Positions 7,721 through 24,200 of a DNA stretch of 64,000 bases are shown piece after piece. The stretch covers positions 64,001-128,000 of the forward strand of contig OZ220741.1 of NCBI GenBank assembly GCA_965116885.1. The letters are read 5' to 3'. A program made the position numbers and the translations under genes. The notes under the pieces were generated by a model, which did not search any database, was not told where the DNA came from, and saw nothing but the letters and a program-made list of their open reading frames with translations. The stretch comes from Candidatus Latescibacterota bacterium (lineage in GTDB: Bacteria > Latescibacterota > UBA2968). The stretch's first letter is position 1. Every line of letters starts with the position of its first letter.

Positions 7721-7739
7721 ATCATATCCTGTCCTGTAG

Positions 7740-7844: not shown

Positions 7845-7881
7845 TTGCATTTTAACACAAGTGTATTATATTAGTAATACA
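7845..7881 (+). promoter_or_regulatory. Promoter overlapped by a YtrA-type GntR operator
   Basis: TTGCAT (7845-7850) and TATATT (7867-7872); perfect palindrome TGTATTA-N6-TAATACA (7862-7881). Confidence 0.75.
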
Positions 7882-7908
7882 GTAATTCACTTATTGAGAG
7901 AATACCTC

Positions 7909-8304: not shown

Positions 8305-9184
8305 CCAGACATCTGTATTTGAAGCCACATCTTTAACTAAAAAATTCAGTGACACCACAGCGCTCAACTCCGTAACGCTCTCTCTCGGGGCGCATCGCGT
8401 AATTGGATTGATCGGACGCAATGGCGGAGGCAAAACCACCTTGATCCAGCACATGATCGGCCTGTATTTGCCCACAGAGGGAACGTGTCAAACACTGGGA
8501 CAAACGTGTGATCAGTTGGGGGCAAACGAACTCTCGCGCATAGGCGTAGTACACCAGGAAAATCGCTTTTTTGAATGGATGACCGTCAAACAGCATCTGC
8601 GCTATGTGTCCTCATTTTACGAAATATGGGACCGCGACCTGGAAGCGCATCTGCTGCGCGAACTCGAACTGGAAACCTCCGCGCGCGTGGGCAACCTGTC
8701 TTCGGGGAATATGCAAAAATTGGGAATCATTCTGGCAGTATGTCATCATCCCGAATTATTGATCTTAGATGAGCCGGTCAGTGGCCTGGACCCTATCGCG
8801 AGAGAGACATTGTTGAAATTTCTAATGACACTCCTATCTGAAGACGAAAACACAATCGTGATCTCCTCCCACATTCTGCGGGACATCGAAAAAATAGTAG
8901 ATTGGGTCGTATGCCTCGACGAAGGTGTGGTCAAAGCCGACAAATCACTGGACGATCTGCACCAGACCTACGCAAAATGGACAGTCACAGGAAACAATCT
9001 GCCCCAGCAATTTTCTGAACCTTATATCCTGTCGCAAACAGTGAACGGAGTACAGGCACAATTGATCGTCAACCAGACACTGGGCAACGCAGACCAATTC
9101 AAACAGACTTATCAGGCTGATGTCACCAGTCAGTCCCTGAACCTCGACCAGCTATTTCCCATCCTGATTCGGGAGGGCGCGTAA
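8291..9184 (+). CDS. ABC transporter ATP-binding protein (YtrB-like)
   Basis: GRNGGGKTT Walker A, LSSGN signature, LILDEP Walker B, SSH switch. Confidence 0.93.
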   Translation: MMAHNQTSVFEATSLTKKFSDTTALNSVTLSLGAHRVIGLIGRNGGGKTTLIQHMIGLYLPTEGTCQTLGQTCDQLGANELSRIGVVHQENRFFEWMTVKQHLRYVSSFYEIWDRDLEAHLLRELELETSARVGNLSSGNMQKLGIILAVCHHPELLILDEPVSGLDPIARETLLKFLMTLLSEDENTIVISSHILRDIEKIVDWVVCLDEGVVKADKSLDDLHQTYAKWTVTGNNLPQQFSEPYILSQTVNGVQAQLIVNQTLGNADQFKQTYQADVTSQSLNLDQLFPILIREGA

Positions 9185-10650
9185 TGGGTATTCTTCCATT
9201 TTTCACATTTTGGCGAAGCCCCGTTTACATTATCATCGCCTCTTGTGTAGGCTGGTTTCTCTTCCAAAACGCGCTGTCTTCCCACGCACATCAGTTCTCT
9301 GTATTCTTTTTATTTTTCTTTATTGAACTTTACGGTGGGATTATTGGCGATATTGTAGGAGAGAACCAGCATCGGATGCTCACATGGACCCTGCCACATT
9401 TTCGCAAGCGTCTTATGATCTGGTCAATAATTGTCGGACTATTTTCCGTTGTGGCGTGGACGATTGTGCTGACTTATGCACCCCTCAATGCGTCCTGGTC
9501 AACGATTTTGCTCCTGAATATGTGCCTCTATTGTTTGGGATTTACCCTTTTTGGGGGATGGAGTTTAGATACTAATCGCCCCGGGTTGATTTACAAGTGT
9601 CGAGTTCCCCTCTCATTGCTGGTGTTGGCATTAGCCTATTTGTGGCAAGAGGTGCTCGCTTTTGGAGAGCAACAAAAGTTGGGATTGGCTCTCATCGCAT
9701 TCGCTATCGCAATTGGAACTCATTATTTCGCCTTTAACCAGACAGCTTTTCGCAGTAGGCCATTTTCTTTTTTTGTTGGTTCATTCTACTCGGGTTTTGA
9801 TCCTCAAACCCGGGAGATTCAAAAGAATGCAATGAAGATGCGAAAGACGAGTACCAGGGTATGGCATATCGATCACATCGGTACAGGCATCTTCAACTGG
9901 CTGCGTGCCGGTCAGTACGAAAATTCTGGTCTGGGCGGGTGGAGATGGCCACTTTCCGCGTTTGGCGCAGCATTGGTAATGGTATTCATTTTTTTGAGCA
10001 TGGAGACGAATTTCTTAGGATTGTTGGGTCAATCTCCCTACGATTTTGAGACCGTCTCGAAAATGATTTATCACATGATCTTTTATTGTGACCAGTTAGA
10101 TCCCAAGATCGCCCTTAATATATCGTTTTCTGTGTGCTTCGGCATTTATATGTTTATTTTTTTCTCTGCTTTTTTCTTAAAAAGAGGGTATGTCTATCCG
10201 CTTTCCCGCACCCAGCGGATGCGAATTCAGTATTGCGATTTGCTGGTGCAAAATATTTCTTTTATTGCCGCATCTATTCTGGTGTTGGGCGTTCTGGGCA
10301 TCCTATCTGGAGCAAAGGTTGGGTTTGTGTCTGAAGGAAATATTTCTCTGGGAATACTTCGCGTTTTTGGATGGGTAGTGGTTCTGATACCGATATTTCA
10401 GTGGTTGCAAGTCAAATATGACCTGTATGAATTTCAAAGAATGCTGAGACATCGGTGGAGGTTCGCTCTTGTGTTACTGATCATGATTTTGAGTATTGGA
10501 ATCGCTGGTTTTACCAGTCTGATGCGTGTCTGGTATCCCGATTTGATGCTGATCTATGAAGTGCCAATCCTATTTGTCTGTTTTATTCTCTTGCAATGGT
10601 TCCTATTGGCTCGGCTCAAACGGTATTATGCGACACAGGATCTGGTATAG
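9184..10650 (+). CDS. Polytopic membrane protein, probable ABC permease (paralog 1)
   Basis: About 12 hydrophobic segments; YPLSR motif; TAATG overlap with the ATPase stop. Confidence 0.75.
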   Translation: MGILPFFTFWRSPVYIIIASCVGWFLFQNALSSHAHQFSVFFLFFFIELYGGIIGDIVGENQHRMLTWTLPHFRKRLMIWSIIVGLFSVVAWTIVLTYAPLNASWSTILLLNMCLYCLGFTLFGGWSLDTNRPGLIYKCRVPLSLLVLALAYLWQEVLAFGEQQKLGLALIAFAIAIGTHYFAFNQTAFRSRPFSFFVGSFYSGFDPQTREIQKNAMKMRKTSTRVWHIDHIGTGIFNWLRAGQYENSGLGGWRWPLSAFGAALVMVFIFLSMETNFLGLLGQSPYDFETVSKMIYHMIFYCDQLDPKIALNISFSVCFGIYMFIFFSAFFLKRGYVYPLSRTQRMRIQYCDLLVQNISFIAASILVLGVLGILSGAKVGFVSEGNISLGILRVFGWVVVLIPIFQWLQVKYDLYEFQRMLRHRWRFALVLLIMILSIGIAGFTSLMRVWYPDLMLIYEVPILFVCFILLQWFLLARLKRYYATQDLV

Positions 10651-10678
10651 ATTTAACCTTATCAACAAGGAAGAAGAG

Positions 10679-11518
10679 ATGACGTATCCAAATCTGAAGC
10701 AGTCTATTTGGCTGCTGGTATTATTGGTCCTGATTAGCGCAGGTTTGGGGATACCGGTTGCGATCCTGGGGATGATTATTGACCAGCCGTTACACAAAAG
10801 TCCTTATGCGATCTGGCCATTGACCCTGGTGAGTTTTGTTTTGGTCGTACACTATGTTTTGCGTCGGACCGATCGAACCTGGGCTTCGTGGTCTGATATC
10901 ATGCCCATAAAAGCCATTTCGTGGCAATTGCTACTGCCACTTGTGGTATCTATCCTTGGATTGCTTATCGTCTCTTTCGAATTGGGAAAAGTGATGATGT
11001 CTTTGGCCCCAACGCCCGAGGTGGTGAAGGATACACTCCGCGGGTTGGTCGGCAAAAAAACCTCTTATTGGTTGGCCTTTTACGGCGCAGTGATTCAAAC
11101 ACCTATCATAGAAGAGGCACTTTTTAGAGGCATTATTGTGGGTGGTTTGTTGGCGTATTGGTCAAAATATCAGGCCGCTATTTGGTCGGCAATTTTGTTT
11201 GGCATATATCACCTGAACCCAGCGCAATTTCCCGTGGCCTTCATATTGGGGCTTGTATTCGCATGGTGGATTATTCAAACGGGGTCTTTGTTGCCTTGTA
11301 TGCTGGGACACGCATTGAACAATTTTCTGGCTATTACCCTGGCACGATCGGGAATACCGGGCTTTAAAAACCCAAAGGCTCTGATCTTTCTGCCGTGGTG
11401 GGTGATCGTGTGTGCCGTACTATTGGCCGCGATTGGATTGTGGTGGTTTTATCAAGTAGCAAAGCGCGAAGAAACTAATCAGCTTGAAGCGGAAGTTGAA
11501 CCCGAAAGACATTGTTGA
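10679..11518 (+). CDS. CPBP (Abi/CAAX-II) family intramembrane metalloprotease
   Basis: EEALFRG, FGIYHLN, HALNN motifs; AAGGAAG RBS. Confidence 0.92.
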   Translation: MTYPNLKQSIWLLVLLVLISAGLGIPVAILGMIIDQPLHKSPYAIWPLTLVSFVLVVHYVLRRTDRTWASWSDIMPIKAISWQLLLPLVVSILGLLIVSFELGKVMMSLAPTPEVVKDTLRGLVGKKTSYWLAFYGAVIQTPIIEEALFRGIIVGGLLAYWSKYQAAIWSAILFGIYHLNPAQFPVAFILGLVFAWWIIQTGSLLPCMLGHALNNFLAITLARSGIPGFKNPKALIFLPWWVIVCAVLLAAIGLWWFYQVAKREETNQLEAEVEPERHC

Positions 11519-11628
11519 AATTTCTAATGACACTTTTGACTGAGGACGAAAACACAATCGTGATTTCGTCACATCATGCACTAAACCTCGACCAGCTATT
11601 TCCCATCCTGATTCGGGAGGACATGTAA
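11507..11628 (+). pseudogene. Internally deleted remnant of a paralogous ABC ATPase 3' end, still in frame
   Basis: 11507-11574 aligns to 8805-8872 and 11581-11628 to 9137-9184; reads TLLKFLMTLLTEDENTIVISSHHALNLDQLFPILIREDM*. Confidence 0.85.
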
Positions 11629-13112
11629 TGGGTATTCTTCCGTTCTTCACATTTTTGCGAAGCCCTGTTCACATTATCATCGCATTTTTTGCATGTCTGT
11701 TACTCGCTCATGTCTCATGGACTGCCGACAGAGACCAGTTCTTTGTGTTTCTCGTATTTCTGCTATTCTTCTTTAGTGGATTTTGGGGCTATGCTATCGG
11801 AGGTATTGTAGCAGAGAACCAGCATCGGACGCTCACCTGGACCCTGCCACATTTTCGCAAGCGTCTGATGATCTGGTCGGCAATAGTCGGACTGTTTTCC
11901 GTAGTGGCGTGGACGATTATGTTGACTTATGCACCCCTTAATGCGTCCTGGTCAACAATCTTGCTAATAAACTTGGGCTTTTATTGTTTCGGATTTGTCT
12001 GTACAGCGGGTTGGGATTTTGGTGTTTATCATTCTCTGTTGATCCAGGCATGTCAGATCATATTAATTTTTTTATTTCTTATATTGGCTTTTTTTTGGCA
12101 AGAGGTACTCGCTTTTGGAGAGCAACAAAAATTGGGGTTGGCTCTCATCGCATTCGCCATCACAATTGCGGCTTATTATTTTTCGTTTAAACAGACAACT
12201 TTTCGGAGAAAGCCTCTTTCCTTGTTATGGTCACTGCGCTCGGTTTTTTATCCTCATACTTGGGAGATGTGGAAAAGGGATGCGATGAAGAGGCGAAAGC
12301 CGAGTACCAGGGTATGGCATCTCGATCACATCGGTACAGGCATCTTCAATTGGCTGCGTGCGGGCCGGTATGAAAATAGTGGTGGCAAGCTATGGCTATG
12401 GATGCTTCCCGGTTTTAGCGCAGCATTGGCAATGGTATTCTTTTTTTTGGGCATGGAGACGAGTTTCTTCGGGTTATTGGGTCGATCTCCTTACGATTTT
12501 GAGACCATCTCAAAAATGATTTATCACATGATCTTTTATTTCGACCAGTTGGCCCCCAAGACCGCCATTAATATATCTCTTTCAGCGTTTTTCGGCGTTT
12601 GGGCATATACGACGTATATTTGGAGTCATCCTTTTTTCTTAAAAAGAGGGTATGTGTATCCGCTTTCTCGCACCCAGCGGATGTGGATTCGGTATTGTGG
12701 TTTTCTGGTGCAAAATATTTCTTTTTTTGCATCGTCTATTCTGGTACTGGGTGTTCTGGGCATCCTGGCAGGGGCAAAGATCGGGTTTATGCATGAAGGG
12801 GATATTTCCTTGAGAATACTTTGTGTCTTTGGGTGGACAGTGGTTCTTTGGCCGATGTTTCAGTGGTTGCAAGTCAAATATCACCTGTATGAATTTCCAA
12901 GAACGCGGCGACAGATGTGGGGGGTGGTTTTTCTGGTCTTGATCATGTTTTTGGCTTGTGGAATTGCTGGTTTTGTCGGTGTGATGCGTAATCTATATCC
13001 CGACTTGTCACTGACCTATGAAGCGCCGATCCTTTTTGTCTGTTTTATTCTTTTGCAATGGTTCCTATTAGCACGGCTCAAACGGTATTACGCCACACAG
13101 GATCTAATTTAG
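11628..13112 (+). CDS. Polytopic membrane protein, probable ABC permease (paralog 2)
   Basis: Long blocks identical or near-identical to 9184-10650, e.g. LTWTLPHFRKRLMIWS, HIGTGIFNWLRAG, FFLKRGYVYPLSRTQRM, LLQWFLLARLKRYYATQDL. Confidence 0.8.
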   Translation: MGILPFFTFLRSPVHIIIAFFACLLLAHVSWTADRDQFFVFLVFLLFFFSGFWGYAIGGIVAENQHRTLTWTLPHFRKRLMIWSAIVGLFSVVAWTIMLTYAPLNASWSTILLINLGFYCFGFVCTAGWDFGVYHSLLIQACQIILIFLFLILAFFWQEVLAFGEQQKLGLALIAFAITIAAYYFSFKQTTFRRKPLSLLWSLRSVFYPHTWEMWKRDAMKRRKPSTRVWHLDHIGTGIFNWLRAGRYENSGGKLWLWMLPGFSAALAMVFFFLGMETSFFGLLGRSPYDFETISKMIYHMIFYFDQLAPKTAINISLSAFFGVWAYTTYIWSHPFFLKRGYVYPLSRTQRMWIRYCGFLVQNISFFASSILVLGVLGILAGAKIGFMHEGDISLRILCVFGWTVVLWPMFQWLQVKYHLYEFPRTRRQMWGVVFLVLIMFLACGIAGFVGVMRNLYPDLSLTYEAPILFVCFILLQWFLLARLKRYYATQDLI

Positions 13113-13333
13113 TAACCGAGAGTTTTTAAGTAGCAGAACAAAAAGCATAATTTTTGTATAATTATGCATATATGCATTTGTTTTCTAATAGTTTTTTTAA
13201 TTTTTTATACGCGTTAATAGCGTTTAATAACTTGCAGCGTGTCGCCAGGGTTACGACAATAAGAGACACGAAGTATTGGCGTATCCATTATTTTGCACAC
13301 GTATGCGTTTCTATACCTGCGAAAATAACGTGT

Positions 13334-16300
13334 ATGTTTGAAAACGGAACGATTCTCGACAAAAGATATCAAATCCAGACGCATCTGGGAACCGGGGGCA
13401 TGGGCGAAGTCTATCGGGTTTTGGACCTGGAGCAAGGTCAGGATTGTGCGCTCAAAATTTTGAATACCATGGCGGATCAGAAGGCTGTGCATCGCCGTTT
13501 TCACAGAGAATTTCAGGTGTTGAACAGATTTCAGCACCCGCGCCTGGTAAGCACCTTTGCCTGGGGCTTTGCCGAAGATCGTCCCTATTTTACAATGGAA
13601 TATTTACCCGGAAAGACATTGGAAAAAATAATTGCTGATCGTGCACATTCAGGGCAATTCCGGACATCCCACTTTTTCGATTTGATACAACAACTTGCCG
13701 AGGGATTGGCTTATATCCACGCGCAGGGTGCGGTGCATCGCGATCTCAAACCGTCCAATATTATGGTATTGGAAACAGAAGAGGGGATTGAAACCACGAT
13801 TCTGGATCTGGGACTGGCGAAACTCAGACATCTGCATAGCGTTTCCATTACGCAGACGGGCACAGCCATTGGGACAGCAGAATATATGTCGCCAGAACAG
13901 GGTAAAGGGTTGTGGGTGGATCATCGATCAGATTTGTACTCATTGGGCATAATTTTATACGAGATGCTCACAGGCACACCGCCTTTTTCGGGACAAAATC
14001 CAATATCTGTTATTATGAAGCATATTCGAGAGGTGCCGCCACCAATGGGCGAAATCAATATCGCGGTTCTCGAACAGACGCAACAAATTGTGTCGAAGTT
14101 GCTGGCAAAGGGAGCTGTTGATCGTTTTCAGTCGGCAGAAGAACTCATGCACGCCTTACCATCGGGGTCTATGCTACCCGATGACGAGCAACGCGATGTA
14201 CATAGAAAAGTTATGCGGTCGCAATTTATCGGGCGAGAATCCGAAATGAAGACATTGCGCGCAATGTTGCAGGATGTACAGGCTGGCAAACAGCGCGCGG
14301 TTCTAATCTCCGGTGAGTCCGGTGTGGGGAAAACGAGACTGGTTGAAGAACTATTGGGCGACGCTTTGATCCATGATTTTCTGTGTTTGAAAGGCACAGG
14401 TCAGGAAGAGGGAGGACAAATATACGGTGCGTTGATCAGTGCTTTTCAAGAGACAGTGGATTTGGTGGCAGAGTTGCCCGATCCAGTAGAATCGGACAAG
14501 TTTTCTGTTATGGAGCGCTGGTTGCAGTTATTAAAAACTCTGCGGCAGAAACAACCCATTGTGTTGTGTTTGGAAAATATTCAATGGCTGGATGAATTGA
14601 CATTGGAATTTTTACAGTATGTGTTGCGCGATCCAGAGCCCTGCCCGTTTTTGTTATGCCTGACCTGTCAATGGTCCAACCTGGAACCGCTTCTAGAGGA
14701 AGTTGAAAATTTTATACACAACAATGTATTTGCTAAGGCGACCCGGATTCAGTTGAAAAATCTACCCCGTGAAGAGGTGGGGTATTTAGCAGCGTCAATG
14801 TTGGGGGAGCGATCCATACCATCCGATGCATTGCAAACCCTGTTCAGGGAAACGGGTGGGCAACCCCTGTTTGTCGTGGAAGCAGTGAGGACACTGGTGA
14901 ATGCCGATGTGGTTCGGCAGAATGTGTACGGCGATTGGCAGTGGGGAGAATTTCCCGAAACACTATTATCCGATGATTTTTCAGAGATTTTGCACAGGCG
15001 CGTAGCTGCTCTTCCTACGGTACAACAGCAAGTGTTGGAATACGCCTGTGTTTTTTTAAATGATTTTTCTTTTGACTTACTGGCGGCGGTTTGGCGCGGC
15101 GATGAGTTGGAATTGCTGGATATACTGGACGAATTGATTGCAGAAGGGCTTTTGACAGCTTGTGGAGAGGATGAAGATCAATATCGTTTTGCACAGGAGT
15201 TGTGCAGACGTGCAATTTATGACCGGATGAAAAATGTGCGGCGACGACTGTTTCATCGAGAAATTGGCAATGCTCTGGAACAGACGGAAGATGTAGAAGA
15301 ATTGACGGAAGAACTGGCAGATCATTTCGCGGCAGCGGAAGAACGAGATAAGGCTATAAAATATACGCGCATAGCAGGTAAAAAAGCATTGAAAAAACAC
15401 GCCTATCGTCAGGCGAGAATGCGGTTTGAGGCTGGGCAGGACTGGACAGCTAATGACGCCTTTGAATCACAAGCAGATACCATCGATTTTTTGTGCGATT
15501 ATGCAGATGCGTTGCGCAATTGTAGTCAGCACAATAGCGCACTGGAACTTTTAGACGAGGCAAAAGCGTTATTGCCCGATGATCGAAATGATTTGAAAGC
15601 GCGTATTTTGTGGAATGAAGGCATTATTCACAGCGTACTTCAACATGGGGGAATAGCAGAAAAATATATGCTGGAGGCATTGCAGCTTTATCGGGAGTTG
15701 GATGATCTCGACGGAGAAATTCAAGCATTGGGTGGTTTGTCTTATTTGTGTGATGTATCTGGGCGACACGAAGAAGCTATTGCATATATGTATCGGGAAA
15801 TAGAGAAACATCATGCGTTGGAAGAAGCCCAGAACAAGGCTATCGTACAAGTGCGAGAAGGTATGGTTGCATTGGTGGAATTTCGGTTTGAGACAGCCAG
15901 GGCACATGTGGAAGCGGCTGTAAAGACATCTCGGCAACCTGGACTTGAACACCATCGTATTGGGGCACTCAATTTACTTTCAAGAGTTTATTTATATCTG
16001 GGTGATCTCGACCAGGCAGAAGCCGTTTGCCACGAAGCCATTGGCGAGTGGCAAAAACGAGGCGATGCTTACTGGGAAGCAATGAATCTTCTCCGGTTGG
16101 GAGAATTGGCACTGGAACGGGAACGCGGTGATTTTGCAGAGGCGTTGGAATATACTGAGATTGCATCAGAGCGATTTTTGGAAACACCGAGAAGAGATTA
16201 TGTCTATCGCGCTTATGCGATTGCGGCAACGGCTGTTGCAAGAATGGGAGATACAGAAGCGGCACTTGAATGGGCAGAAAAAGCCAGTGAAGGTGTACAG

Positions 16301-18148
16301 CAAACATCGGGTATGTACACGGGCATATTGCCTCTGGTGCATTGCGGTATTGGTGTTGCCTTAGACAAAGCTGGGCGGATAGCTGAGGCTGAAGAGGCTT
16401 TTGAGCAGGCGATTGAATGCCGAAGAGAATCCAAAGGCGACCACTGGGCGCGTGCGCTGCTGATGGCAGGGGAGTTTTATCTCCAGCGCGATGATGTATC
16501 AAAAGCGCAAGCACATCTCAAAGCGGCAAAACAGGCGTTTGAAGAAATGCAAATGTCCTATTTTTTGGAGAAAACACAGGTGTTATTAGGTCAATTATCT
16601 GGCGACAAAGATGGTCACCACAGGGATGCCGCACCCAGTTCTGAAAATTCAGTCGATACGTTGTCTGTTGATCGCTGGCGCTTGCTTTACGATGTGAGCC
16701 AGGAATTGACTACAGAGCGCGATGTCAAGGTGCTATTGGATCGGACTCTGGGTAATTTGTTGACTGTTTATCCAGCAGAGCGGGTGCTTGTTGCGATTAA
16801 AAATGAGACCCCAAAAGGCTTTGCGGTTGATGCCGTACGCCACTACAATTTAGAAGTAGATGATGCAGAAGCACTGAGTCAGGGTATTATTCGTCGGGTT
16901 ATTGAGACAAATGAGCCCGTTTTGAGCATTGATGCACAGACAGACGACAGGCTCAATCAGTACCAGAGCGTGATAGACTACGACATTCGGTCTGTATTGT
17001 GTGTACCCCTATTTCATGTTAGCGAAGGTGTGATGGGTGCGCTATATGTGGATCATCGTGGCTTGGGTAACGCATTTTCTGAAACAGACCAGACGTTTTT
17101 ACAGGCATTTGCGAATCTGGTGGGGGTGGCACTGGTCAATGCGAGGATGTACGAACAACTGGAAGAGAAAGCGCGATATTTGCAGCAACAGATTGAAAAA
17201 AGGTACCAGCTTGGCGATCTCGTCGGGCAAAGTGATGCGATGCAGACCATCTACCATCTTATAGAACGCGCGGCAAAGAGCGATATTCCCGTGCTTGTGC
17301 AGGGTGAAACAGGTACGGGCAAAGAATTGGCTGCGCGTGCCATACACTACAATAGCACGCGCAAAGACCAGCGATTTTTGTCGCAAAATTGCGCGGCTCT
17401 TTCACCAGAGTTGTTGCAGAGTGAGTTGTTTGGATACAAAAAAGGCGCGTTTACTGGCGCGACTGAAGATCATAAGGGGATTTTTGAGGCTGCCAATGGG
17501 GGTACGGTTTTTCTGGATGAAATCGCCGATGCCTCTCCACAGTTGCAAAGGAGTTTGTTGCGGGTATTGCAAGAAGGAGAGGTGCGGCGTATGGGAGAAA
17601 CAGAAGATCGTCCAGTAGATGTGCGCATTATTGCAGCGACTAATCGAGACTTAAAAAAGGAAGTTGAAAAAGGCTCTTTCCGCGAAGATTTGTATTACCG
17701 GTTGCGTGTGATTCAGATCGATATGCCGCCTTTGCGAGAACGCCTTGAAGATGTGCCATTGTTGGCCGAACTTATGCTCACCCGAGCAAAAGAAGATGCA
17801 AACAAGTCGGTTGGGGGGCTAACAGTAGGTGCAATAAAGACCCTTGTAAGTTACAACTGGCCTGGCAATGTGCGCGAGTTGGAGAATGAGATTCGACTGG
17901 CTGTGGCATTGACAAAAGAAGAGGGTGATATTACGCCCGATTTATTTTCAGAATCCATCGGGCACGCGGTGTCAGGTGTCTCTGTCGAATACCAGGGGCG
18001 TTTACAAGACCGTGTGCAGGCGTATGAAAAACGAGTAATTCGAGACGCGCTCGAAAAATGCGTGGGCAATATTACGCATACAGCCAGAGAATTGGGGATG
18101 ACGCGCGCTGGCCTACAGAAAAAGATCAATCGTTTGGAGTTGAGATAG
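13334..18148 (+). CDS. Hanks Ser/Thr kinase - STAND/AAA ATPase - TPR - GAF - sigma-54 enhancer-binding protein (AAA+, Fis HTH)
   Basis: GTGGMGEVY, HRDLKPSN, DLGLA, YMSPEQ; GESGVGKT; helical repeats; SVLCVPL...GALYVD GAF; GETGTGKE, GAFTGA, FREDLYYRL, WPGNVREL; C-terminal HTH. Start taken at MFENG. Confidence 0.93.
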   Translation: MFENGTILDKRYQIQTHLGTGGMGEVYRVLDLEQGQDCALKILNTMADQKAVHRRFHREFQVLNRFQHPRLVSTFAWGFAEDRPYFTMEYLPGKTLEKIIADRAHSGQFRTSHFFDLIQQLAEGLAYIHAQGAVHRDLKPSNIMVLETEEGIETTILDLGLAKLRHLHSVSITQTGTAIGTAEYMSPEQGKGLWVDHRSDLYSLGIILYEMLTGTPPFSGQNPISVIMKHIREVPPPMGEINIAVLEQTQQIVSKLLAKGAVDRFQSAEELMHALPSGSMLPDDEQRDVHRKVMRSQFIGRESEMKTLRAMLQDVQAGKQRAVLISGESGVGKTRLVEELLGDALIHDFLCLKGTGQEEGGQIYGALISAFQETVDLVAELPDPVESDKFSVMERWLQLLKTLRQKQPIVLCLENIQWLDELTLEFLQYVLRDPEPCPFLLCLTCQWSNLEPLLEEVENFIHNNVFAKATRIQLKNLPREEVGYLAASMLGERSIPSDALQTLFRETGGQPLFVVEAVRTLVNADVVRQNVYGDWQWGEFPETLLSDDFSEILHRRVAALPTVQQQVLEYACVFLNDFSFDLLAAVWRGDELELLDILDELIAEGLLTACGEDEDQYRFAQELCRRAIYDRMKNVRRRLFHREIGNALEQTEDVEELTEELADHFAAAEERDKAIKYTRIAGKKALKKHAYRQARMRFEAGQDWTANDAFESQADTIDFLCDYADALRNCSQHNSALELLDEAKALLPDDRNDLKARILWNEGIIHSVLQHGGIAEKYMLEALQLYRELDDLDGEIQALGGLSYLCDVSGRHEEAIAYMYREIEKHHALEEAQNKAIVQVREGMVALVEFRFETARAHVEAAVKTSRQPGLEHHRIGALNLLSRVYLYLGDLDQAEAVCHEAIGEWQKRGDAYWEAMNLLRLGELALERERGDFAEALEYTEIASERFLETPRRDYVYRAYAIAATAVARMGDTEAALEWAEKASEGVQQTSGMYTGILPLVHCGIGVALDKAGRIAEAEEAFEQAIECRRESKGDHWARALLMAGEFYLQRDDVSKAQAHLKAAKQAFEEMQMSYFLEKTQVLLGQLSGDKDGHHRDAAPSSENSVDTLSVDRWRLLYDVSQELTTERDVKVLLDRTLGNLLTVYPAERVLVAIKNETPKGFAVDAVRHYNLEVDDAEALSQGIIRRVIETNEPVLSIDAQTDDRLNQYQSVIDYDIRSVLCVPLFHVSEGVMGALYVDHRGLGNAFSETDQTFLQAFANLVGVALVNARMYEQLEEKARYLQQQIEKRYQLGDLVGQSDAMQTIYHLIERAAKSDIPVLVQGETGTGKELAARAIHYNSTRKDQRFLSQNCAALSPELLQSELFGYKKGAFTGATEDHKGIFEAANGGTVFLDEIADASPQLQRSLLRVLQEGEVRRMGETEDRPVDVRIIAATNRDLKKEVEKGSFREDLYYRLRVIQIDMPPLRERLEDVPLLAELMLTRAKEDANKSVGGLTVGAIKTLVSYNWPGNVRELENEIRLAVALTKEEGDITPDLFSESIGHAVSGVSVEYQGRLQDRVQAYEKRVIRDALEKCVGNITHTARELGMTRAGLQKKINRLELR

Positions 18149-18160
18149 GCGGTGAACAGG

Positions 18161-18283
18161 TGCATCCAGATGTATGCAGTAGTGCATCCAACTGTATGCA
18201 CTTGTTTATCTTTATATAATTCAGATAGTTATGTTTGTTTTCTTGTAAATAGAGATTATAGGTGCATCCTGTCGGATGCACCT
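18161..18283. promoter_or_regulatory. Three palindromic upstream activator (enhancer) sites
   Basis: TGCATCCAGATGTATGCA (18161-18178), TGCATCCAACTGTATGCA (18183-18200), AGGTGCATCC-TGTC-GGATGCACCT (18260-18283). Confidence 0.75.
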
Positions 18284-18342
18284 GCGCCAGAATCTCGCAG
18301 GTGTAGCACAAATAATTCTTAAATTTTATCTCTTTGTTTTTC

Positions 18343-18368
18343 AAGCACTTGAAAATTTTCAAGTGCTT
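18343..18368. promoter_or_regulatory. Perfect 26-bp palindrome overlapping an IHF-like site between enhancer and promoter
   Basis: AAGCACTTGAAAATTTTCAAGTGCTT; the overlapping TTTCAAGCACTTG resembles WATCAANNNNTTR. Confidence 0.5.
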
Positions 18369-18389
18369 TTTTTGTGCTGAGACGACCTT

Positions 18390-18404
18390 TGGCACGGATC
18401 TTGC
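18390..18404 (+). promoter_or_regulatory. Sigma-54 (-24/-12) promoter
   Basis: TGGCACGGATCTTGC matches TGGCACG-N4-TTGC exactly, 55 bp upstream of the peptide ATG. Confidence 0.9.
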
Positions 18405-18459
18405 GCTATAAAAAGGGCAAACCGTTATGGCGCAAGATTTTTCCTTAAAGGAGGATAAC

Positions 18460-18639
18460 ATGGCAACACGACGCAAGTTGACTTTGGTCAATGGAACAAT
18501 AGATCAAGAAGGTAGCATTCTTATGTATCAGACTGTAAAGAGTGTTGAGGTTCACTGCTCCCCTTATTCTTTTTCCGTTCCCCTCGTGCCTTTCCCTGAT
18601 GATGACGACGATTGGGACGATTTTGATCAAGCTGAATAA
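18460..18639 (+). CDS. Putative RiPP precursor peptide (59 aa)
   Basis: AAGGAGG RBS; MATRRKLTLVNGTIDQEGSILMYQTVKSVEVHCSPYSFSVPLVPFPDDDDDWDDFDQAE; lies directly upstream of an RRE-containing radical SAM gene. Confidence 0.75.
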   Translation: MATRRKLTLVNGTIDQEGSILMYQTVKSVEVHCSPYSFSVPLVPFPDDDDDWDDFDQAE

Positions 18640-18665
18640 ATCATCTCTATTTTGAGGAGTGTACT

Positions 18666-20096
18666 ATGCTATGCATTCAGAAATGCGACATGCATCTTTT
18701 TGAAACCGAGGAGCAAAAACAGCCGATTGTCTATCAGGTTGAGACCGGTCTGTTTTTTGAACTGGACACCCTTTTCCAGTCAATTTTAGAGTGTTGTGAG
18801 GGCTTGTCTGCTTCACAGGTTGTTCAAGTATTGGTTGATCAATACGAGGCAGAAGAAATTGCTCAGGCTATCGGGGAATTGGCGCAGGTGGGTTTGATTG
18901 CTGATGGCGCACTACCTGTAGTAGCCAATGTACCGACAACAGAAGGGGTAGCTGCCTGTGGCGTGTCGCAGACAGATCGTTTGCAGGTGTCGTTGCACAT
19001 TTCGCATACATGTAATATTCAATGTGCTTATTGCTTTGCTCACGGTGGAGATTATGGCGGTAAGGCCATGCTGATGCAACCAGATGTTGCCGAGCAAGCC
19101 ATACGCTGGATCGTCACTGAAGCTCAGGGGTTTGGGCGGTGCCAGATTGATTTTTTTGGCGGGGAGCCGCTTCTGAATTTTCCGCTGTTGCAGAAGCTCG
19201 TTCCATTTGCCAAATCCCTGGGCGCGCGATTGGATGTACAGGTTGGTTTTGGTATTGTGACCAATGGCACGCTGTTGACCGACGAGATGAAGCAATTTTT
19301 GGTCGATGAAAAGTTTCAAATTAAGGTTAGCCTGGATGGTGGGCGCAAGACACAGGATCGCATTCGCAAGTTTCACAATGGTTCCGGGACTTATGATGTT
19401 GTGGCAAAGAATGTAAAGAAATTGGCTGCTGAGGCACCTGAGCGCGTGTATTTGCAGGCTGTTATGACAGCTTATGATATGGATGAAGATCAGATTGCCA
19501 ATGCGTTGCGCTCGCTGGGTACTGATAACGCGCTTGTTGATCCGGCTGTTGTTTCACCGGATGCGCCCTATGCGATTCGGGAAGAACACATACCCGTTTT
19601 GAAGCAGCAAATTCACAAGCGGAGTAGGCGTGCGCTCAAAGCCATTCTAAATGGTGAAGAGAATGAGGAGTTTGATCCGCGGATTCAGAAACTGTTGACG
19701 CGACAAAAATCCTGTCATGGATGCCTGGGTGGTAAGCAGTATCTGGCTGTTGCAGCGGATGGGGCGATTTATTTTTGTTCGAGCTTGGCCGATGCGCCTG
19801 AGTTTAAGATGGGTGATGTGTTTGCGGGTATTGATCGCGAAAAACAGCAGCATTTTGACGCGCAGTTCAATGTCAACAATCGGCCTGAGTGCAAGACCTG
19901 CTGGGCGCGCAACCTGTGTGGTGGTGGGTGTCTTTGGGAGGCGCGGACGACGACGGGTGATCCGATGTATCCCAACCCTGTTGCTTGTGAGCAGACGCGC
20001 TATCGCTATGAACTGGCGATGGAGATGTGTATGGAAATTTCAGAGGCAGATGGTTCTTTGTTGCAACGACGTTATGATCTGGAAGTGGCATCATAA
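18666..20096 (+). CDS. RRE (PqqD-like) - radical SAM - SPASM peptide maturase, ranthipeptide (CteB/QhpD-like) type
   Basis: N-terminal three-strand plus winged-helix RRE pattern; CNIQCAYC; FFGGEPLLN; TNGTLL; SLDG; SPASM CHGC...YFC...CKTCWARNLCGGGC...C; GAGGAG RBS. Confidence 0.92.
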   Translation: MLCIQKCDMHLFETEEQKQPIVYQVETGLFFELDTLFQSILECCEGLSASQVVQVLVDQYEAEEIAQAIGELAQVGLIADGALPVVANVPTTEGVAACGVSQTDRLQVSLHISHTCNIQCAYCFAHGGDYGGKAMLMQPDVAEQAIRWIVTEAQGFGRCQIDFFGGEPLLNFPLLQKLVPFAKSLGARLDVQVGFGIVTNGTLLTDEMKQFLVDEKFQIKVSLDGGRKTQDRIRKFHNGSGTYDVVAKNVKKLAAEAPERVYLQAVMTAYDMDEDQIANALRSLGTDNALVDPAVVSPDAPYAIREEHIPVLKQQIHKRSRRALKAILNGEENEEFDPRIQKLLTRQKSCHGCLGGKQYLAVAADGAIYFCSSLADAPEFKMGDVFAGIDREKQQHFDAQFNVNNRPECKTCWARNLCGGGCLWEARTTTGDPMYPNPVACEQTRYRYELAMEMCMEISEADGSLLQRRYDLEVAS

Positions 20097-20128
20097 GCAG
20101 AATTGACTGTATATTGAGTACTTGCTTA

Positions 20129-20183
20129 AAAACGACATCCAAATGGGGAGCACTCTATTAGATGCCGTTTATTTTGCTTTTTT
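20129..20183 (+). terminator. Putative terminator after the radical SAM gene
   Basis: Imperfect long hairpin AAACGACATC...GATGCCGTTT followed by a T-rich tract. Confidence 0.45.
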
Positions 20184-20206
20184 GGGTGGGCGACAGATTG
20201 TCGGTG

Positions 20207-21199
20207 ATGGGAAAAATATACCAATCAAAAAAATCCGGTCTCTATAAATGGCCGCTCATTGGACAGCATTCCTCACTCTTAGACGTGCAAAAGCGCGCGT
20301 ACCGCGTGGCGAATAGCGAATTGCCCGTCAACATCAATGGTGAGACTGGCACGGGTAAGGAATTGCTCGCCCGTTATGTTCATGGGATTAGCCACCGCAA
20401 CAAGGGACCATTTGTAACCGTTGACTGCGGCATACTCTCTTCTGAAATGTCGCGCAGCGAGTTATTTGGACATGTTCGAGGTGCTTTTACCGGTGCCAGT
20501 GAAACGCGCACCGGACTGGTTGAATCTGCCCACGGCGGTACGCTATTCCTCGATGAAGTGGGCGAATTGCCAGCCAATCTTCAGTTGCAATTGCTACGCC
20601 TGGTACAGGAGCAGGAATTTCGCCGCGTAGGCGAAGCATCCATGCGCCGATCTGACGTGCGCCTGGTCACTGCGACACACTGCAACTTGCGAAAAATGGT
20701 GCGAAAAGGAACTTTCCGAGAAGATCTCTATTACCGCTTAAATGTCGTACCCCTGCATTTGCCACCCCTGCGGAAGCGACTGAGCGACTTACCTCTTCTG
20801 GTCACACATTTTTACAAGAACATGAACGGATACACCCGCGCGTTTTCCCCCGAAGTCATTCAAAGGATGTCGCGTTATGCATGGCCCGGCAATGTTCGGG
20901 AACTACAACACGAAGTCGCCCGATTGATGGTCATGGCCGAAGGTAAAATTATCCGCGTATCCGATCTGCACCCTCGCATTCGAGGGGCAAAGGCCGAGGT
21001 CGATGTATTTGACCTCCCCTTTAAGGAAGCCAGACAGCTGGCGAACAGCCGGTTTATGCGAGAGTATCTTCACAGAGCTTTGCAGCGAACACAGGGCAAT
21101 GTAACCCAGGCAGCGCGAGAATGCGGGATTGGCCGACAATATTTCCAATTGCGTATGTCTGAACACGGTCTAAAGTCGGCATCTTACAAACAAAAATAA
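20207..21199 (+). CDS. Sigma-54 enhancer-binding protein with no N-terminal sensor domain (PspF/HrpR-like architecture)
   Basis: AAA+ core starts about 15 aa in; GETGTGKE, ELFGHVRGAFTGA, FREDLYYRL, WPGNVREL, HTH GNVTQAARECGIGR. Confidence 0.9.
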   Translation: MGKIYQSKKSGLYKWPLIGQHSSLLDVQKRAYRVANSELPVNINGETGTGKELLARYVHGISHRNKGPFVTVDCGILSSEMSRSELFGHVRGAFTGASETRTGLVESAHGGTLFLDEVGELPANLQLQLLRLVQEQEFRRVGEASMRRSDVRLVTATHCNLRKMVRKGTFREDLYYRLNVVPLHLPPLRKRLSDLPLLVTHFYKNMNGYTRAFSPEVIQRMSRYAWPGNVRELQHEVARLMVMAEGKIIRVSDLHPRIRGAKAEVDVFDLPFKEARQLANSRFMREYLHRALQRTQGNVTQAARECGIGRQYFQLRMSEHGLKSASYKQK

Positions 21200-21216
21200 T
21201 ACCTCACGGTGTACCC

Positions 21217-21251
21217 AAAAAACGTCAATGGAAAAACCCATTGACGTTTTT
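21217..21251. terminator. Bidirectional intrinsic terminator
   Basis: AAAAAACGTCAATGG / CCATTGACGTTTTT inverted repeat. Confidence 0.75.
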
Positions 21252-21278
21252 CCTTGCAGGGTGTTTCTTGAGCGTATC

Positions 21279-24200
21279 ATGCAATACATCGCCGACATAC
21301 ACCTGCACTCGCGTTTTGCCCGCGCAACCAGCAAGACCCTGAACCCCGAAAACCTGTATCGGTGGAGCCTCATCAAAGGTCTGACCGTGGTAGGCACCGG
21401 AGATTTCACCCATCCGGTATGGTTTGAAGAACTGCGCGATCAACTCGAACCCGCCGAAGAAGGGTTATATCAACTGCGCCCAGACCTCAGGCGAGGTATC
21501 GACGCCGAGTTACCACAAGCCTGCCGCGGACAAATGCGATTTGTGCTCTCGGTCGAAATCAGCCTCATCTACAAAAAAAACGACAAAACGAGAAAAATAC
21601 ATCACGTCGTCACAATGCCGAGTTTTGACGCTGTGGCGCGCTTGAATGCCCGACTCGGCGCAATAGGCAATCTGAAATCCGACGGACGCCCCATCCTCGG
21701 CCTGGACAGCCGGGACCTGGTAGAAATTTGTCTGGAAGCGTGTGACGAGGTACTCTTTATACCCGCCCACATCTGGACCCCTCACTTCGCGGTCCTCGGC
21801 GCGAGTTCTGGATTCGACACCCTCGAAGAATGTTTTGAAGACATGCTCCCCCACATCTTCGCCGTAGAAACCGGCCTGTCTTCCGATCCGCCGATGAACT
21901 GGCGCCTATCCATGCTGGACAACTACGCAATCGTCTCCAATTCCGATGCACATTCCCCGCAAAAACTCGCCCGCGAAGCCACCTGCTTTAACACCGAATT
22001 ATCCTTTCGAGGAATGTATGACGCATTAAAAGACCGCGATCCAACGCGCTTCACCGGCACCCTGGAATTTTATCCCGAAGAAGGCAAATATCACTTTGAC
22101 GGACATCGAAAATGCGATATATGCTGGAAACCCGTACAAACCCTCGAAGCAGACGGGATCTGTCCGGTATGTAATCGCAAATTGACCGTTGGCGTACTCC
22201 ACCGCGTTGAAAAACTCGCAGACCGCGCAGAAGGCGACCGCCCCAACGTGGCGATGCCCTTTGAAAATCTGATCCCACTGCCAGAAATCATCGGTTCAGT
22301 CCTCCAGGTGGGACCGACCAGCAAACGCGTACAATCCGTGTACGAACAAATGCTCGCAACACATGGGGCAGAGCTGAAAATCTTGCGCGAACTGCCCATC
22401 GAAGAAATCGCAAAAACAGGAGACCCCCTCATCGCCGAAGGCATTCGACGCATGCGCGAAGGCACAGTTCACATAGACCCGGGATACGACGGCGTGTACG
22501 GCAAAATTCAAGTCTTCTCCGACGAAGACCGCGCACGCCTGAGCGGACAGGAATCGCTGTTTCACATACCAGTCTCAGAGCCTTCGAAAGAGAAAGAAGA
22601 GAAAGCAAGCCTGGACAAGAGCACAGAAACCGAGATCGTCAGAGATTCTCCCTTCACACTTCCCACTTCTCACTTCACACTTCTCGATCCCCACCAGCAA
22701 GCAGCCGTAACAACAGAAAAAGGTCCCGTCATCGTAACAGCGGGACCTGGCACCGGAAAAACCAGGGTACTCACCCATCGCGTAATCGACCTGATCCAGA
22801 ACCGCGGCGTATCGCCCGCTTCTGTAATGGCCGTAACATTCACCAACCGCGCCGCAACTGAAATGTGGGAACGCATCGTATCACTATCCTCGGGAGGAGA
22901 AGAACTGGTACCCATGCGCGTGGGCACATTCCACCGCCTATCACTGGACCTCCTGCGAGAATACGCCCCCGAGCGACTGGGCGCAATAGCCGACCGCGGA
23001 GAAGCCCGTGCCCTCTTGCAAGAAGTAATCGCCGACATCGACACCGAAATACCGATTGATGACGCCCTCTCTCAGATCTCCCTGTACAAAGCCTGTGCTG
23101 AAGATCAAGACATCATTTCCCCCGAACTCCAAACCATTTATACAAATTATCAACACCGCCTCACCACGTATGGACTGATGGACTTTGACGACATCTTGCT
23201 CATACTCCACGATGTACTCTGCGGCGATATATTGCGGACAGTGCAAGCGCGTTTTTCCCATGTACTCGTCGATGAATTTCAAGACGTCAACGCCGTACAA
23301 TACGCACTAATTCAAAAACTGGCTGGGGATGGTTCCGGTCTATTCGTCATCGGCGATCCCGATCAAGCTATCTACGGTTTTCGAGGCGCGAGCGCAGAAT
23401 ATTTTGCACAGTTAAAATCGGACTTTCCCGAAACAAACGAAGTCATATTGCAGCACACATTTCGCTCCACACCTCAGATTATCTCCGCAGCATCCAGCCT
23501 GCTTGGCGAGCGATCGTACGATCCCGTACGAGAAAATGGTCCTAATCTAAGAATACTATCCACACCCGGCGAAACAGGCGAAGGCATCGCCATCGTAGAA
23601 GAAATCTCCCGGATGGTCGGCGGCGCAGACTTATTGCAAGCCAACGAAGAAGGCAAACGCAGCCTGGACGACTTTGCCGTATTGTTCCGCACCGGACGCC
23701 AGGCAGACGCCCTGGAAGCGTGCTTCTTACAGGCCGGGATCCCCTATCGCGTCGTCGGACAGAAAAATTATCTGGACGCGGCCTCGGTACAGCATGCACT
23801 ATCGTTTTTTAAGTGCCTCCTGAAGGACAACATTTCCAGCACCCCAACCACCAGAGATATAACCGACCTCCTCTCCATCCCCGCATTTGACCCTGGCCGA
23901 GAAGCCCGCGCATCAATACGCCAGCAAATACAAAACAACACACTATCAGACACTGTACAGGAAAAATTGGACACCGCGATAGAAGCTGTAGATCGCTTCC
24001 GCAATGAAACATCCCACCTATCGCCTTCCGAACGCATAGCAAAGTGGGCAGAAGAATTTGCGACATCAGACGACATCGACATCGAACGACTGGGCCTATT
24101 AGCTCAAGGCGTGGATTCCATCGCAGAGCTATTGGAAATCATCACCCTCGGACAAGATGGCGACTTTGTACGTCGTGGAAAAATTGCGCGGCCCGAAGCC

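Follow-up and report, generated by a model that had tools for sequence, protein, structure and literature searches.

Among the enzymes that act on peptides made by ribosomes and modified after translation (RiPPs), the SCIFF maturases of Firmicutes combine an N-terminal peptide-binding domain, the CX3CX2C motif of radical S-adenosylmethionine (rSAM) enzymes and a seven-cysteine SPASM domain, and a small precursor gene lies directly upstream of theirs. The PDB entries 5wgg and 5why, entitled 'Thioether Bond Formation in the Biosynthesis of Sactipeptides', presumably show CteB, an enzyme of this kind. PapB (the freyrasin-type maturase) and QhpD belong to the same clade of Cys-to-carbon cross-linking rSAM/SPASM enzymes, and PapB-type substrates carry a repeated Cys-x3-acid motif. 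This study concerns a 64,000-nucleotide stretch of DNA from Candidatus Latescibacterota bacterium (contig OZ220741.1, positions 64,001 to 128,000), hereafter called the window, in which a relative of these enzymes is encoded behind a small peptide gene, a predicted sigma-54 promoter and the gene of a giant putative enhancer-binding protein (EBP1). Comparison with related loci points to EBP1, peptide and maturase as a conserved system.

The maturase resembles CteB and the SCIFF maturases over its full length, including the N-terminal domain, both cysteine motifs and the small gene directly upstream. Unlike the SCIFF maturases, with which it shares 29–32% identity (266 bits vs 425), it stands beside a precursor of another family with one invariant cysteine instead of six, is predicted to be controlled by sigma-54 and a giant activator, and occurs in Latescibacterota, not in Firmicutes. 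By score it falls into the clade of PapB (230 bits) and QhpD (247 bits), although it remains below their cut-offs (340 and 453, respectively), the peptide lacks the repeated Cys-x3-acid motif, and no qhp subunit genes were found among the open reading frames (ORFs) of the window.

EBP1 shares with MalT- and LAL-type STAND regulators and with PknK an AAA_16 NTPase followed by MalT-like tetratricopeptide repeats (TPRs), and regulators of the LAL type activate natural-product clusters in a pathway-specific way. Unlike MalT and the LAL proteins, it has a sigma-54 enhancer-binding module as output and not a LuxR-type helix-turn-helix (HTH) working on sigma-70 promoters. The order of GAF, AAA+ and Fis-type HTH domains in its C-terminal 490 residues is that of NifA, NorR and FhlA (382.7 bits for NifA, TIGR01817; 360 for NorR). 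In contrast to NifA and NorR, EBP1 stays below the model cut-offs (528.85 and 476), carries approximately 1100 additional N-terminal residues of kinase, STAND NTPase and TPRs, and has a peptide operon as its predicted target. The TOMM kinase/cyclase model TIGR03903 was matched over three stretches with 290.1 bits, whereas its cut-off is 705.75; the output of EBP1 is GAF, sigma-54 AAA+ and HTH instead of a cyclase (no cyclase domain occurs among the 25 of 33 Pfam families listed), and the accompanying maturase is an rSAM enzyme and not a cyclodehydratase.

A large Ser/Thr kinase with a STAND-like region has been described beside the NHLP-Burk TOMM precursor family (PMC2887384), and in Myxococcus, EBPs and -24/-12 promoters directly drive secondary-metabolite genes for polyketide synthases and nonribosomal peptide synthetases, the work being concerned with these genes and a response-regulator EBP (PMC7910581); a term search of the latter text gave no mention of RiPPs. 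For metagenome-assembled genomes of Latescibacterota, antiSMASH 'ranthipeptide' and 'RRE' clusters were listed without further analysis, and the function of ranthipeptides was called unknown (PMC12993501). A term search of the text of the rSAM RiPP compendium (PMC10288494) yielded no mention of Latescibacteria, Gemmatimonadota or kinase. The literature search found no description of an architecture of sigma-54 activator, peptide and rSAM maturase. A sequence-only reading of the window had called the module a candidate for an undescribed system, and this stands insofar as no paper describing it was found; partial precedents exist in the TOMM kinase and the Latescibacterota antiSMASH clusters. 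What is unusual is the regulatory half; the peptide/maturase half has a layout ordinary for RiPPs, and its enzyme and precursor are unclassified.

Conservation of the activator, peptide and maturase genes

Genomes were scanned for relatives, which gave at least 598 pattern matches and 125 confirmed relatives among the matches listed, 80 of which were kept. The family comprises 26 of these loci (L001–L025 and L044) with 42–93% maturase identity; the other 54, at 24–38%, belong to other rSAM families. The proteins of the window were compared with the 26 loci by tblastn. The window and the close loci make up 19 close modules, and the rest are referred to as deep relatives. As L024 begins inside the maturase gene and has no upstream sequence, 25 loci could be scored.

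Of these 25 loci, 24 have EBP1 directly upstream of the maturase, with 79–86% identity in the close modules and 40–44% in the deep relatives. A peptide ORF with a Shine-Dalgarno (SD) sequence lies between the two genes, likewise in 24 of 25 (with a TTG start in L019). We judge the arrangement to exceed chance from this conservation in related loci, and not from motif counts within the window. Judged by gene order, the conserved system is the trio of EBP1, peptide and maturase. The sequence-only reading had described a compact, co-oriented module in which a dedicated kinase/STAND/TPR/GAF activator serves a sigma-54-controlled peptide/maturase unit; all of the described parts were located, all on the forward strand, and conservation across the related loci supports the pairing. 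The same reading would have been refuted had the closest maturase homologues lacked a conserved upstream peptide and activators; in these homologues the peptide, the activator and the -24/-12 site are all retained, and the reading withstands this check. Most records of the family loci name Candidatus Latescibacterota, and those of L023 and L025 name Gemmatimonadota. Several chromosomes carry more than one module, namely at least three in OZ242195.1 and at least two each in OX638317.1, OZ242311.1, OZ244847.1, OX638329.1, OZ220733.1 and the JAJDYX01 assembly, all of these being lower bounds.

No Pfam or NCBIfam model matched any of the 24 peptides. In all of them N11, G18, C33, P44 and P46 are invariant, and L7, G12, I20 and P41 nearly so. 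The peptides consist of an N-terminal leader common to the family, with the pattern L-x-L-(I/V)-N-G ... G-x-(I/V), followed by the one invariant cysteine, 6–8 variable residues and a Pro-rich motif; an acidic tail with one tryptophan is confined to the close group. The ratio of nonsynonymous to synonymous changes (dN/dS; Nei-Gojobori, 19 close copies) was 0.35 overall, 0.31 in the leader, 0.47 in the middle, 0.67 after the cysteine, 0.14 in the Pro motif and 0.32 in the tail. The leader, Pro motif and tail are under purifying selection, which is relaxed after the cysteine, and on this pattern the ORF is therefore judged to be a real gene with a diversifying core. A search of 1.84 billion representatives with the peptide profile returned 24 proteins at E ≤0.001, composed of 19 peptides of 47–121 residues and five large repeat proteins (P0129, P0134, P0136, P0141 and P0144; 642–2689 residues). 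Going by the titles seen, the peptide family appears small and confined to the Latescibacterota lineage. Homology of the leader to the five repeat proteins was rejected, and the match is read as a generic beta-hairpin motif. In P0129 and the start of P0134, which were inspected, single stretches scored approximately 2–10 bits and the totals were summed over 5–18 repeats. These proteins were picked up via a short L-x-L-x-N-G ... G-x-I-x-x-Y hairpin motif, and by eye one of them is SRCR-like (animal-type) and one of the cadherin type.

The close modules fall into locus types with different flanking genes, and the types of peptide core are mosaic relative to locus type and EBP1. L013, a locus of another type, has a core like that of the window, and the L014 core is nearest to that of L008, yet the L014 EBP1 is nearest to that of L004. 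The mosaic suggests that core segments have been exchanged between modules.

Pfam recognised Radical_SAM, Fer4_12 and SPASM in the maturase, the latter with 22.4 bits against a cut-off of 21.5. Across 18 sequences there is no variation in the cysteines of the CX3CX2C motif at residues 116–123 (C116, C120 and C123) or in seven SPASM cysteines (C353, C371, C409, C412, C418, C422 and C441). The family profile aligned with 5wgg/5why over residues 9–456 (E 2e-87; 2.1e-61 for the single sequence), and anaerobic sulfatase-maturating enzymes (anSMEs) followed at 3e-25. An AlphaFold2 model (mean predicted local distance difference test score 73.8, predicted template modelling score 0.67) has an N-terminal domain of three strands and three helices at residues 9–74, the 5wgg alignment begins at residue 9, and PF05402, the PqqD family of Pfam, is precomputed on many of the homologues. 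Foldseek ranked 5wgg/5why first (E 1.6e-28, TM-score 0.62–0.70), followed by anSME, ChlB, TigE and SuiB.

The best NCBIfam scores, given in bits with the cut-off after the stroke, were 266.4/425 for SCIFF (TIGR03974), 255/519 for the Nif11 type, 246.9/453 for QhpD (TIGR03906), 237/855 for 'not ScfB' and 229.6/340 for PapB (NF047865). The leading models (SCIFF, Nif11, QhpD and PapB) all represent thioether-forming or Cys-modifying maturases. Against anSME (TIGR03942) the score was 114.1 with a cut-off of 349, and the maturase has the extra N-terminal domain. Three maturases of deep relatives were likewise below all NCBIfam cut-offs. By architecture and nearest kin, the maturase, with its putative RiPP recognition element (RRE), is placed in the thioether-forming group of RRE-rSAM-SPASM enzymes, outside any named family, and the synteny in 24 of 25 loci suggests that it acts on the adjacent peptide. 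A maturase search gave 60 clusters at 39–92% identity (296–1020 bits), and then a drop to 31% and 248 bits, a level at which the first named SCIFF maturases appear. Within the close group, maturase identity is not sorted by locus type (0.900 in the same genome, 0.896 in the same locus type and 0.890 in neither), and the tree is poorly resolved, with some same-genome copies pairing. Gene conversion among the copies of a genome was considered and dropped, the signal in the mean identities being too small to claim.

EBP1 contains, according to Pfam, a Pkinase domain (residues 12–272, E 8.6e-48), an AAA_16 STAND NTPase (297–436, E 3.9e-27, 96 bits), TPR_12 and TPR_MalT repeats (TPR region at approximately 640–1100), a GAF domain (about 1129–1267, E 1.5e-13), a Sigma54_activat domain (1296–1462, E 2.2e-75, 252 bits; AAA+ region with lid 1296–1543) and a Fis-type HTH (HTH_8, 1565–1600). 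Its ORF is open for 1664 residues, and the true start at the ATG at 13334 agrees with the start of all orthologues. Every domain is present across an alignment of 18 sequences, down to 41% identity. Invariant in this alignment are K41, E59, H135, D137, N142 and D158 of the kinase, positions which we take to supply the catalytic Lys, the Glu, the HRD Asp, the Asn and the DFG-type Asp, G327, G330, G332 and K333 of the STAND Walker A motif (G327–K333), the AAA+ Walker A motif G1324–K1330 and Walker B residues D1395/E1396, and the residues of the GAFTGA motif except the first A, which was not listed as invariant. The kinase, STAND NTPase and AAA+ engines all look functional. EBP1 has the features of a sigma-54 activator (Sigma54_activat AAA+ with GAFTGA loop and DNA-binding HTH) and of a STAND regulator (NTPase with Walker A, then a repeat sensor), and its conserved residues are those expected of a Hanks-type Ser/Thr kinase.

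Among 13 intact copies, the most divergent part of EBP1 is the TPR stretch of residues 695–893 (65–74% mean pairwise identity); the HTH shows 78%, and the kinase, NTPase, GAF and AAA+ domains 83–87%. The architecture is much expanded, with at least 120 clusters at 90% identity. All 120 listed (79–100% identical) share the domain set, and among them some chromosomes are represented by two or three entries. Upstream of EBP1, in an AT-rich region, a palindrome ATGCATATATGCAT was noted at 13166–13180, with the TGCAT half-site of the activator sites at 2-nt spacing. Autoregulation through this palindrome was considered and dropped; the palindrome is kept in 7 of 7 loci of the window's type and is uninformative because the other locus types have unrelated upstream DNA.

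Predicted control region between activator and peptide

The intergenic stretch from EBP1 to the rSAM gene is 517 bases long and holds the palindromes, hairpin, promoter, SD and peptide ORF (Table 1). The exact sequence TGGCAC-N5-TTGC occurs once in the 64 kb, at 18390–18404, and an alignment of the window with 17 close loci shows no departure from GGCAC and TTGC (18 of 18). All three exact TGCATCC-N6-ATGCA sites of the window lie within 18161–18280. The same alignment shows that the SD and the ATG have been preserved, together with the hairpin and the positions of the three palindromes. The consensus sigma-54 promoter and three matching palindromes (at 18160, 18182 and 18262) that had been proposed from the sequence were thus recovered, and both are conserved in relatives. 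Each of the six deep relatives examined has a GG-N10-GC site with 9–10 of 11 consensus positions, 97–206 bp before the peptide start, and in each of the six a hairpin with a T-run precedes it within approximately 10–30 bp.

The hairpin at 18343–18368 and its T-run comprise 11 pairs with -14.1 kcal/mol (z -3.5), a stability reached by 0 of 200 shuffles. In eight loci that were folded, the hairpins ranged from -11.4 to -18.8 kcal/mol, and 0–3 of 200 shuffles folded as well. The stems differ in sequence between lineages and occupy the same place directly before the -24 element. Terminator-like sites as such are not enriched in the window (24 vs 18.8 expected). The hairpin likely serves as an intrinsic terminator and would shield the sigma-54 promoter from transcription that runs on from EBP1. 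Of the terminator-like hairpins that had been claimed for the module, this one is clear, and none was found between the maturase and the downstream activator gene.

The last 48 residues of EBP1 were compared with the first 150 bases after its stop codon, and HTH class and half-site were concordant in 19 of 19 close modules. The class is given by Q, H or Y at the x of a G/S-L-x-K/R-K stretch. All nine modules of the Q class (G-L-Q-K-K) have TGCAT-type half-sites (TGCATCC), seven of the H class have the TGTATCC/TGTATCT type, and three of the Y class (S-L-Y-R-K) have the TGTATCA type. A match of this kind is what one would predict for palindromes bound by the adjacent HTH and for paralogous modules insulated from one another. 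With a conserved -24/-12 promoter and predicted binding sites upstream of it, EBP1 appears to have a cognate target. The intergenic region and the HTH sort by locus type, with intergenic identities of 0.795 within a type vs 0.70–0.72 otherwise, and HTH identities of 0.848 vs 0.80–0.84.

No exact WATCARNNNNTTR match to an IHF site was found in the intergenic region, and the whole window holds two vs 4.5 expected. An Rfam scan of positions 7500–25000 gave nothing near the gathering score, hence no riboswitch or known leader RNA. An inverted repeat over the -12 element (18398–18411/18425–18438) was dropped; by eye it is not kept in other close loci. A one-mismatch sigma-54-like site (TGGCAT-N5-TTGC, 32775–32789, reverse strand) lies in a short intergenic stretch just upstream of an 831-residue MacB/FtsX-type permease gene at 30267–32762. 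One-mismatch sites in the window, this one included, were rejected, their number being at chance level.

Neighbouring genes

Table 1. Features of the module and adjoining genes; positions refer to the window
Feature	Position	Strand	Remarks
GntR regulator gene	7861-8304	+	
ABC ATPase gene	8291-9184	+	
Membrane protein gene, 488 aa	9184-10650	+	
CPBP protease gene	about 10679-11518	+	
Membrane protein paralogue gene, 494 aa	11628-13112	+	
EBP1 gene	13334-18148	+	Pfam domains; 1604 aa
Activator site 1 (putative), palindrome with TGCAT-N8-ATGCA core	18160-18179	+	Position kept in 18/18 aligned close loci
Activator site 2 (putative), palindrome, 22 bp from site 1	18182-18201	+	
Activator site 3 (putative), perfect palindrome, ~120 bp upstream of -24 element	18262-18281	+	
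Intrinsic-terminator-like hairpin and T-run, between activator sites and promoter	18343-18375	+	
Predicted sigma-54 -24/-12 promoter, TGGCAC-N5-TTGC	18390-18404	+	
SD, AAGGAGG	18448-18454	+	Six bases before peptide ORF
Precursor peptide gene (predicted), 59 aa	18460-18639	+	ORF and SD
RRE-radical SAM-SPASM maturase gene (predicted), 476 aa	18666-20096	+	
EBP2 gene, sensor-less sigma-54 activator (predicted)	20207-21199	+	Neighbour in window's locus type only
PHP-UvrD fusion gene, 1093 aa	21228-24509	+	Directly after EBP2

The peptide and maturase genes are 26 nt apart, each preceded by an SD. Downstream of them in the window follows EBP2, for which Pfam reports a sigma-54 AAA+ domain (217 bits), a lid and HTH_8 and nothing else. 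The GAFTGA motif was seen in both translations, as claimed for the two EBPs that flank the unit, and with AAA+ and HTH it marks EBP2 as a sigma-54 activator. Its start was set to 20207 rather than 20162 from indels in a six-locus alignment. EBP2 and the PHP-UvrD gene directly follow the maturase in L001, L004, L008, L012 and L016. In L009 and L020 inserts of 1.1–1.4 kb come between, and in L014 the separation is 6.7 kb and includes, among other genes, a transposase-like one. No sigma-54 promoter for EBP2 was seen in the conserved spacer. EBP2 belongs to a wider family of sensor-less activators (324–345 residues, 52–91% identical) and stays with the PHP-UvrD gene. The sequence-only reading had counted it as part of the system; because it is confined to the window's locus type, being absent from the other 10 of 19 close modules and from all deep relatives, EBP2 is better regarded, on gene order, as a neighbour outside the conserved module.

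Upstream of EBP1, the ABC ATPase is most similar to the ATPase PmtA of the phenol-soluble modulin exporter (169 bits vs a cut-off of 350) and also to lantibiotic-protection ATPases, and the CPBP protease scored 72.5 bits for Rce1-like proteins. The two paralogous membrane proteins of approximately 490 residues belong to no Pfam family; the nearest named atlas cluster for a membrane protein of the unit, 'putative ABC exporter' (0.86), is a lead only. This GntR/ABC/membrane/CPBP unit (7861–13112) is confined to the window's locus type, and some loci are without the protease or the second membrane protein. It may export or process the peptide, the link being one of adjacency alone. That the module has no protease or exporter, as the earlier reading put it, holds for the stretch from EBP1 to EBP2 itself and does not extend to its surroundings, as the unit stands directly upstream and some relatives have a CPBP gene or an ABC exporter downstream.

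Other locus types differ downstream. In eight close loci (L002, L003, L005, L006, L010, L011, L013 and L015) a conserved protein of approximately 300 residues, 77–86% identical among these loci, follows the maturase (11587–12492 in L002). It matched no Pfam or NCBIfam model, and by eye shows a methyltransferase-like glycine-rich motif. L007 and L017 have neither downstream arrangement. In the deep relatives L023, L024, L025 and L044 (L018 is similar), a second rSAM-like gene and a GT4 glycosyltransferase gene were found downstream of the maturase. The second rSAM-like genes (L023 12298–13686, L024 1216–2502, L025 6141–7634 and L044 10655–12118) are without CX3CX2C, and the SPASM motif CX2CX5CX3C is kept in three of four. 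Their products may be catalytically dead partners, and the GT4 protein may add a glycosylation step. The fate of the peptide after maturation probably differs by locus.

Genes for integrases, PD-(D/E)XK nucleases or transposases were observed near modules in L006 (427–4267), L003 (12441–13796), L018 (2619–3701), L044 (7144–8418) and L014 (15100–16644), and some module copies may lie in variable or mobile regions. A gene for a family-5 (OppA-type) solute-binding protein is found upstream of EBP1 in L018 (934–2619) and L019 (1881–3734). Elsewhere, the window encodes an ankyrin-repeat protein (2982–3731, 249 residues) and a DEAD-box plus UvrD double helicase (47950–53127, 1725 residues).

Proposed mechanism, alternatives and significance

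From the observed anatomy, conservation, HTH/site co-variation and enzyme homology we infer how the module may be activated, what its enzyme acts on and by which chemistry, and what becomes of the product. The module is probably a self-contained sigma-54 switch dedicated to one pathway, whose product would be a Cys-cross-linked peptide of ranthipeptide-like kind. The C-terminal HTH of EBP1 would bind the three palindromes 110–230 bp upstream of the promoter, while its kinase/STAND/TPR/GAF part would read a signal. STAND-driven oligomerisation may then assemble the AAA+ ring, which would open a sigma-54 polymerase already bound at 18390–18404, and peptide and maturase would be co-transcribed. 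As the terminator hairpin would block read-through from EBP1, both would be made only on activation. The putative N-terminal RRE of the maturase would hold the conserved leader while the rSAM/SPASM core acts on the invariant cysteine, most likely linking it through a thioether with a carbon of some residue close by, within the variable or Pro-rich core; the product would be a ranthipeptide- or sactipeptide-like ring. Diversification would proceed through several modules per genome with differing cores and private pairs of DNA site and HTH.

A number of observations weigh against this proposal. With one mismatch allowed, the sigma-54 pattern occurs at six sites in the 64-kb window vs 5.97 expected, which is not above chance, and with up to two mismatches the palindrome pattern gives nine strand-counted matches vs 8.57. 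The three HTH/site classes are also three clades, so that two independent changes are represented and shared ancestry could produce the match. In L007, L010, L013, L017 and L020, five of the 19 close loci, the EBP1 gene reads as if split or shifted in frame, and in L044 the maturase lies in two frames, with a transposase upstream and no EBP1. The peptide has one invariant cysteine and, besides prolines, no invariant acceptor residue, unlike the substrates of SCIFF maturases or PapB. In the maturase, the Pfam match to PqqD is weak (E 0.0043, 17.8 bits, below the cut-off of 23.4), the SPASM part of the AlphaFold2 model is of low confidence, and all curated NCBIfam family cut-offs are missed, for which reason the chemistry is not transferable from a family. 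As to the broken EBP1 copies, the gene aligns in two frames in L007, L010, L017 and L020 and has an internal deletion in L013; these are either decaying genes or assembly errors.

The maturase might make no thioether at all, and instead form a C-C cyclophane on the aromatic/Pro-rich core or oxidise the cysteine as anSMEs do on C-x-P-x-R sites. In favour of this, the enzyme misses all curated cut-offs, many close-group cores read C-x-P, the core often contains aromatic residues, structures of anSMEs come second among the fold matches, and the cyclophane maturases YhhB and FxsB scored 90 and 78 bits. We nevertheless consider this unlikely, as the best matches in sequence and fold are thioether-forming enzymes (230–266 bits vs 114 for anSME), the cysteine is the only invariant reactive residue of the peptide, no aromatic residue is invariant, and C-x-P is not kept, some cores reading C-P-S-G and those of the deep group C-x-W-P. 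That the small ORF is no substrate and the maturase modifies an unlinked protein, for example a sulfatase or a quinohemoprotein subunit, would fit the presence of anSME and QhpD among the related families, but is very improbable given an ORF kept with its SD under purifying selection in 24 of 25 loci, a maturase N-terminal domain that aligns to that of 5wgg, and the absence of sulfatase or qhp genes from the window's ORFs. It is improbable, too, that both activators work on the same promoter, with EBP2 as a second, sensor-less input or as an amplifier fed by read-through from the sigma-54 promoter. EBP2 is co-oriented with the maturase, begins 110 nt downstream of it with no terminator found between, and has GAFTGA, and all 6 of the aligned loci of the window's type preserve the spacer; against this stand the many modules without EBP2, the inserts in L009, L020 and L014, an HTH that differs from that of EBP1, and its membership in an activator family that travels with PHP-UvrD.

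For the product, the sequence-only reading had suggested an intracellular signal, a cofactor or a ligand for one of the activators, all of which are conjectural. What the product does admits two further, both rather doubtful, readings. It could be exported as an antimicrobial or competition peptide, with the upstream GntR/ABC/CPBP unit for export, processing or self-protection. The kinship of the ABC ATPase with PmtA and lantibiotic-protection ATPases, the CPBP protease (with a further homologue 7 kb downstream of L006 and a CPBP gene in L023), ABC exporters with a membrane domain in L021 and L022, and a hypervariable core behind a conserved leader, as is typical of diversifying RiPPs, all agree with this. 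However, the unit is absent from the 10 other close modules, has its own GntR regulator and is tied to the module solely by adjacency, and a C39 peptidase is lacking, as is a conserved double-glycine site in the peptides. In the other reading, which is just as tentative, the circuit is autoinducing, the matured peptide or a fragment being the ligand of the TPRs of its own EBP1 in an RRNPP-like manner, with positive feedback driven by sigma-54 and the modules acting as private channels. RRNPP receptors bind peptides through TPRs, the peptide gene always adjoins a TPR-bearing sensor-activator, and the paralogous modules have private HTH/site pairs. EBP1 diverges most in the TPR stretch of residues 695–893, and the peptide in the residues after the cysteine; the correlation of core with TPR distances is the highest among seven domains (Spearman 0.37 vs -0.03 to 0.29), and the OppA-type genes adjoin EBP1 in L018 and L019. 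This correlation is, however, weak and not corrected for shared ancestry, the cores are mosaic relative to EBP1, as in L014, and an exported peptide would need re-import because EBP1 has no membrane or secretion signal. A complex prediction of EBP1 residues 640–1275 (TPR and GAF) with the peptide on 18-row alignments scored 0.00 vs a mark of 0.32, which is neither support nor counter-evidence. Self-sensing is attractive but unsupported. The strongest form of the idea makes each module a complete private signalling circuit: the TPR/STAND region of the activator would detect the cross-linked peptide of the same module, the sigma-54 AAA+ ring would assemble and peptide output would rise, and several insulated circuits with differing cores, TPRs, HTHs and DNA sites would run within one genome. 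This we hold to be unlikely; if true, it would be a quorum-sensing-like system made from STAND and sigma-54 parts and not from two-component or RRNPP parts.

Under the favoured explanation of a pathway-specific sigma-54 switch, RiPP research gains a precursor family without a curated model, with one invariant cysteine and a Pro-rich core, and the cross-link may be new because the maturase clade lies outside every named family. Since the Latescibacterota hosts are uncultured, heterologous tests are among the few routes into the regulation and chemistry. With regard to transcription, members of the family would combine a NifA-like sigma-54 engine with a eukaryote-like kinase and a STAND sensor that is NLR-like, and each such activator would be tied to one small operon. 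The matched changes of recognition helix and site would represent natural, possibly orthogonal activator/promoter pairs, and may offer a way to study what keeps paralogous sigma-54 circuits apart.

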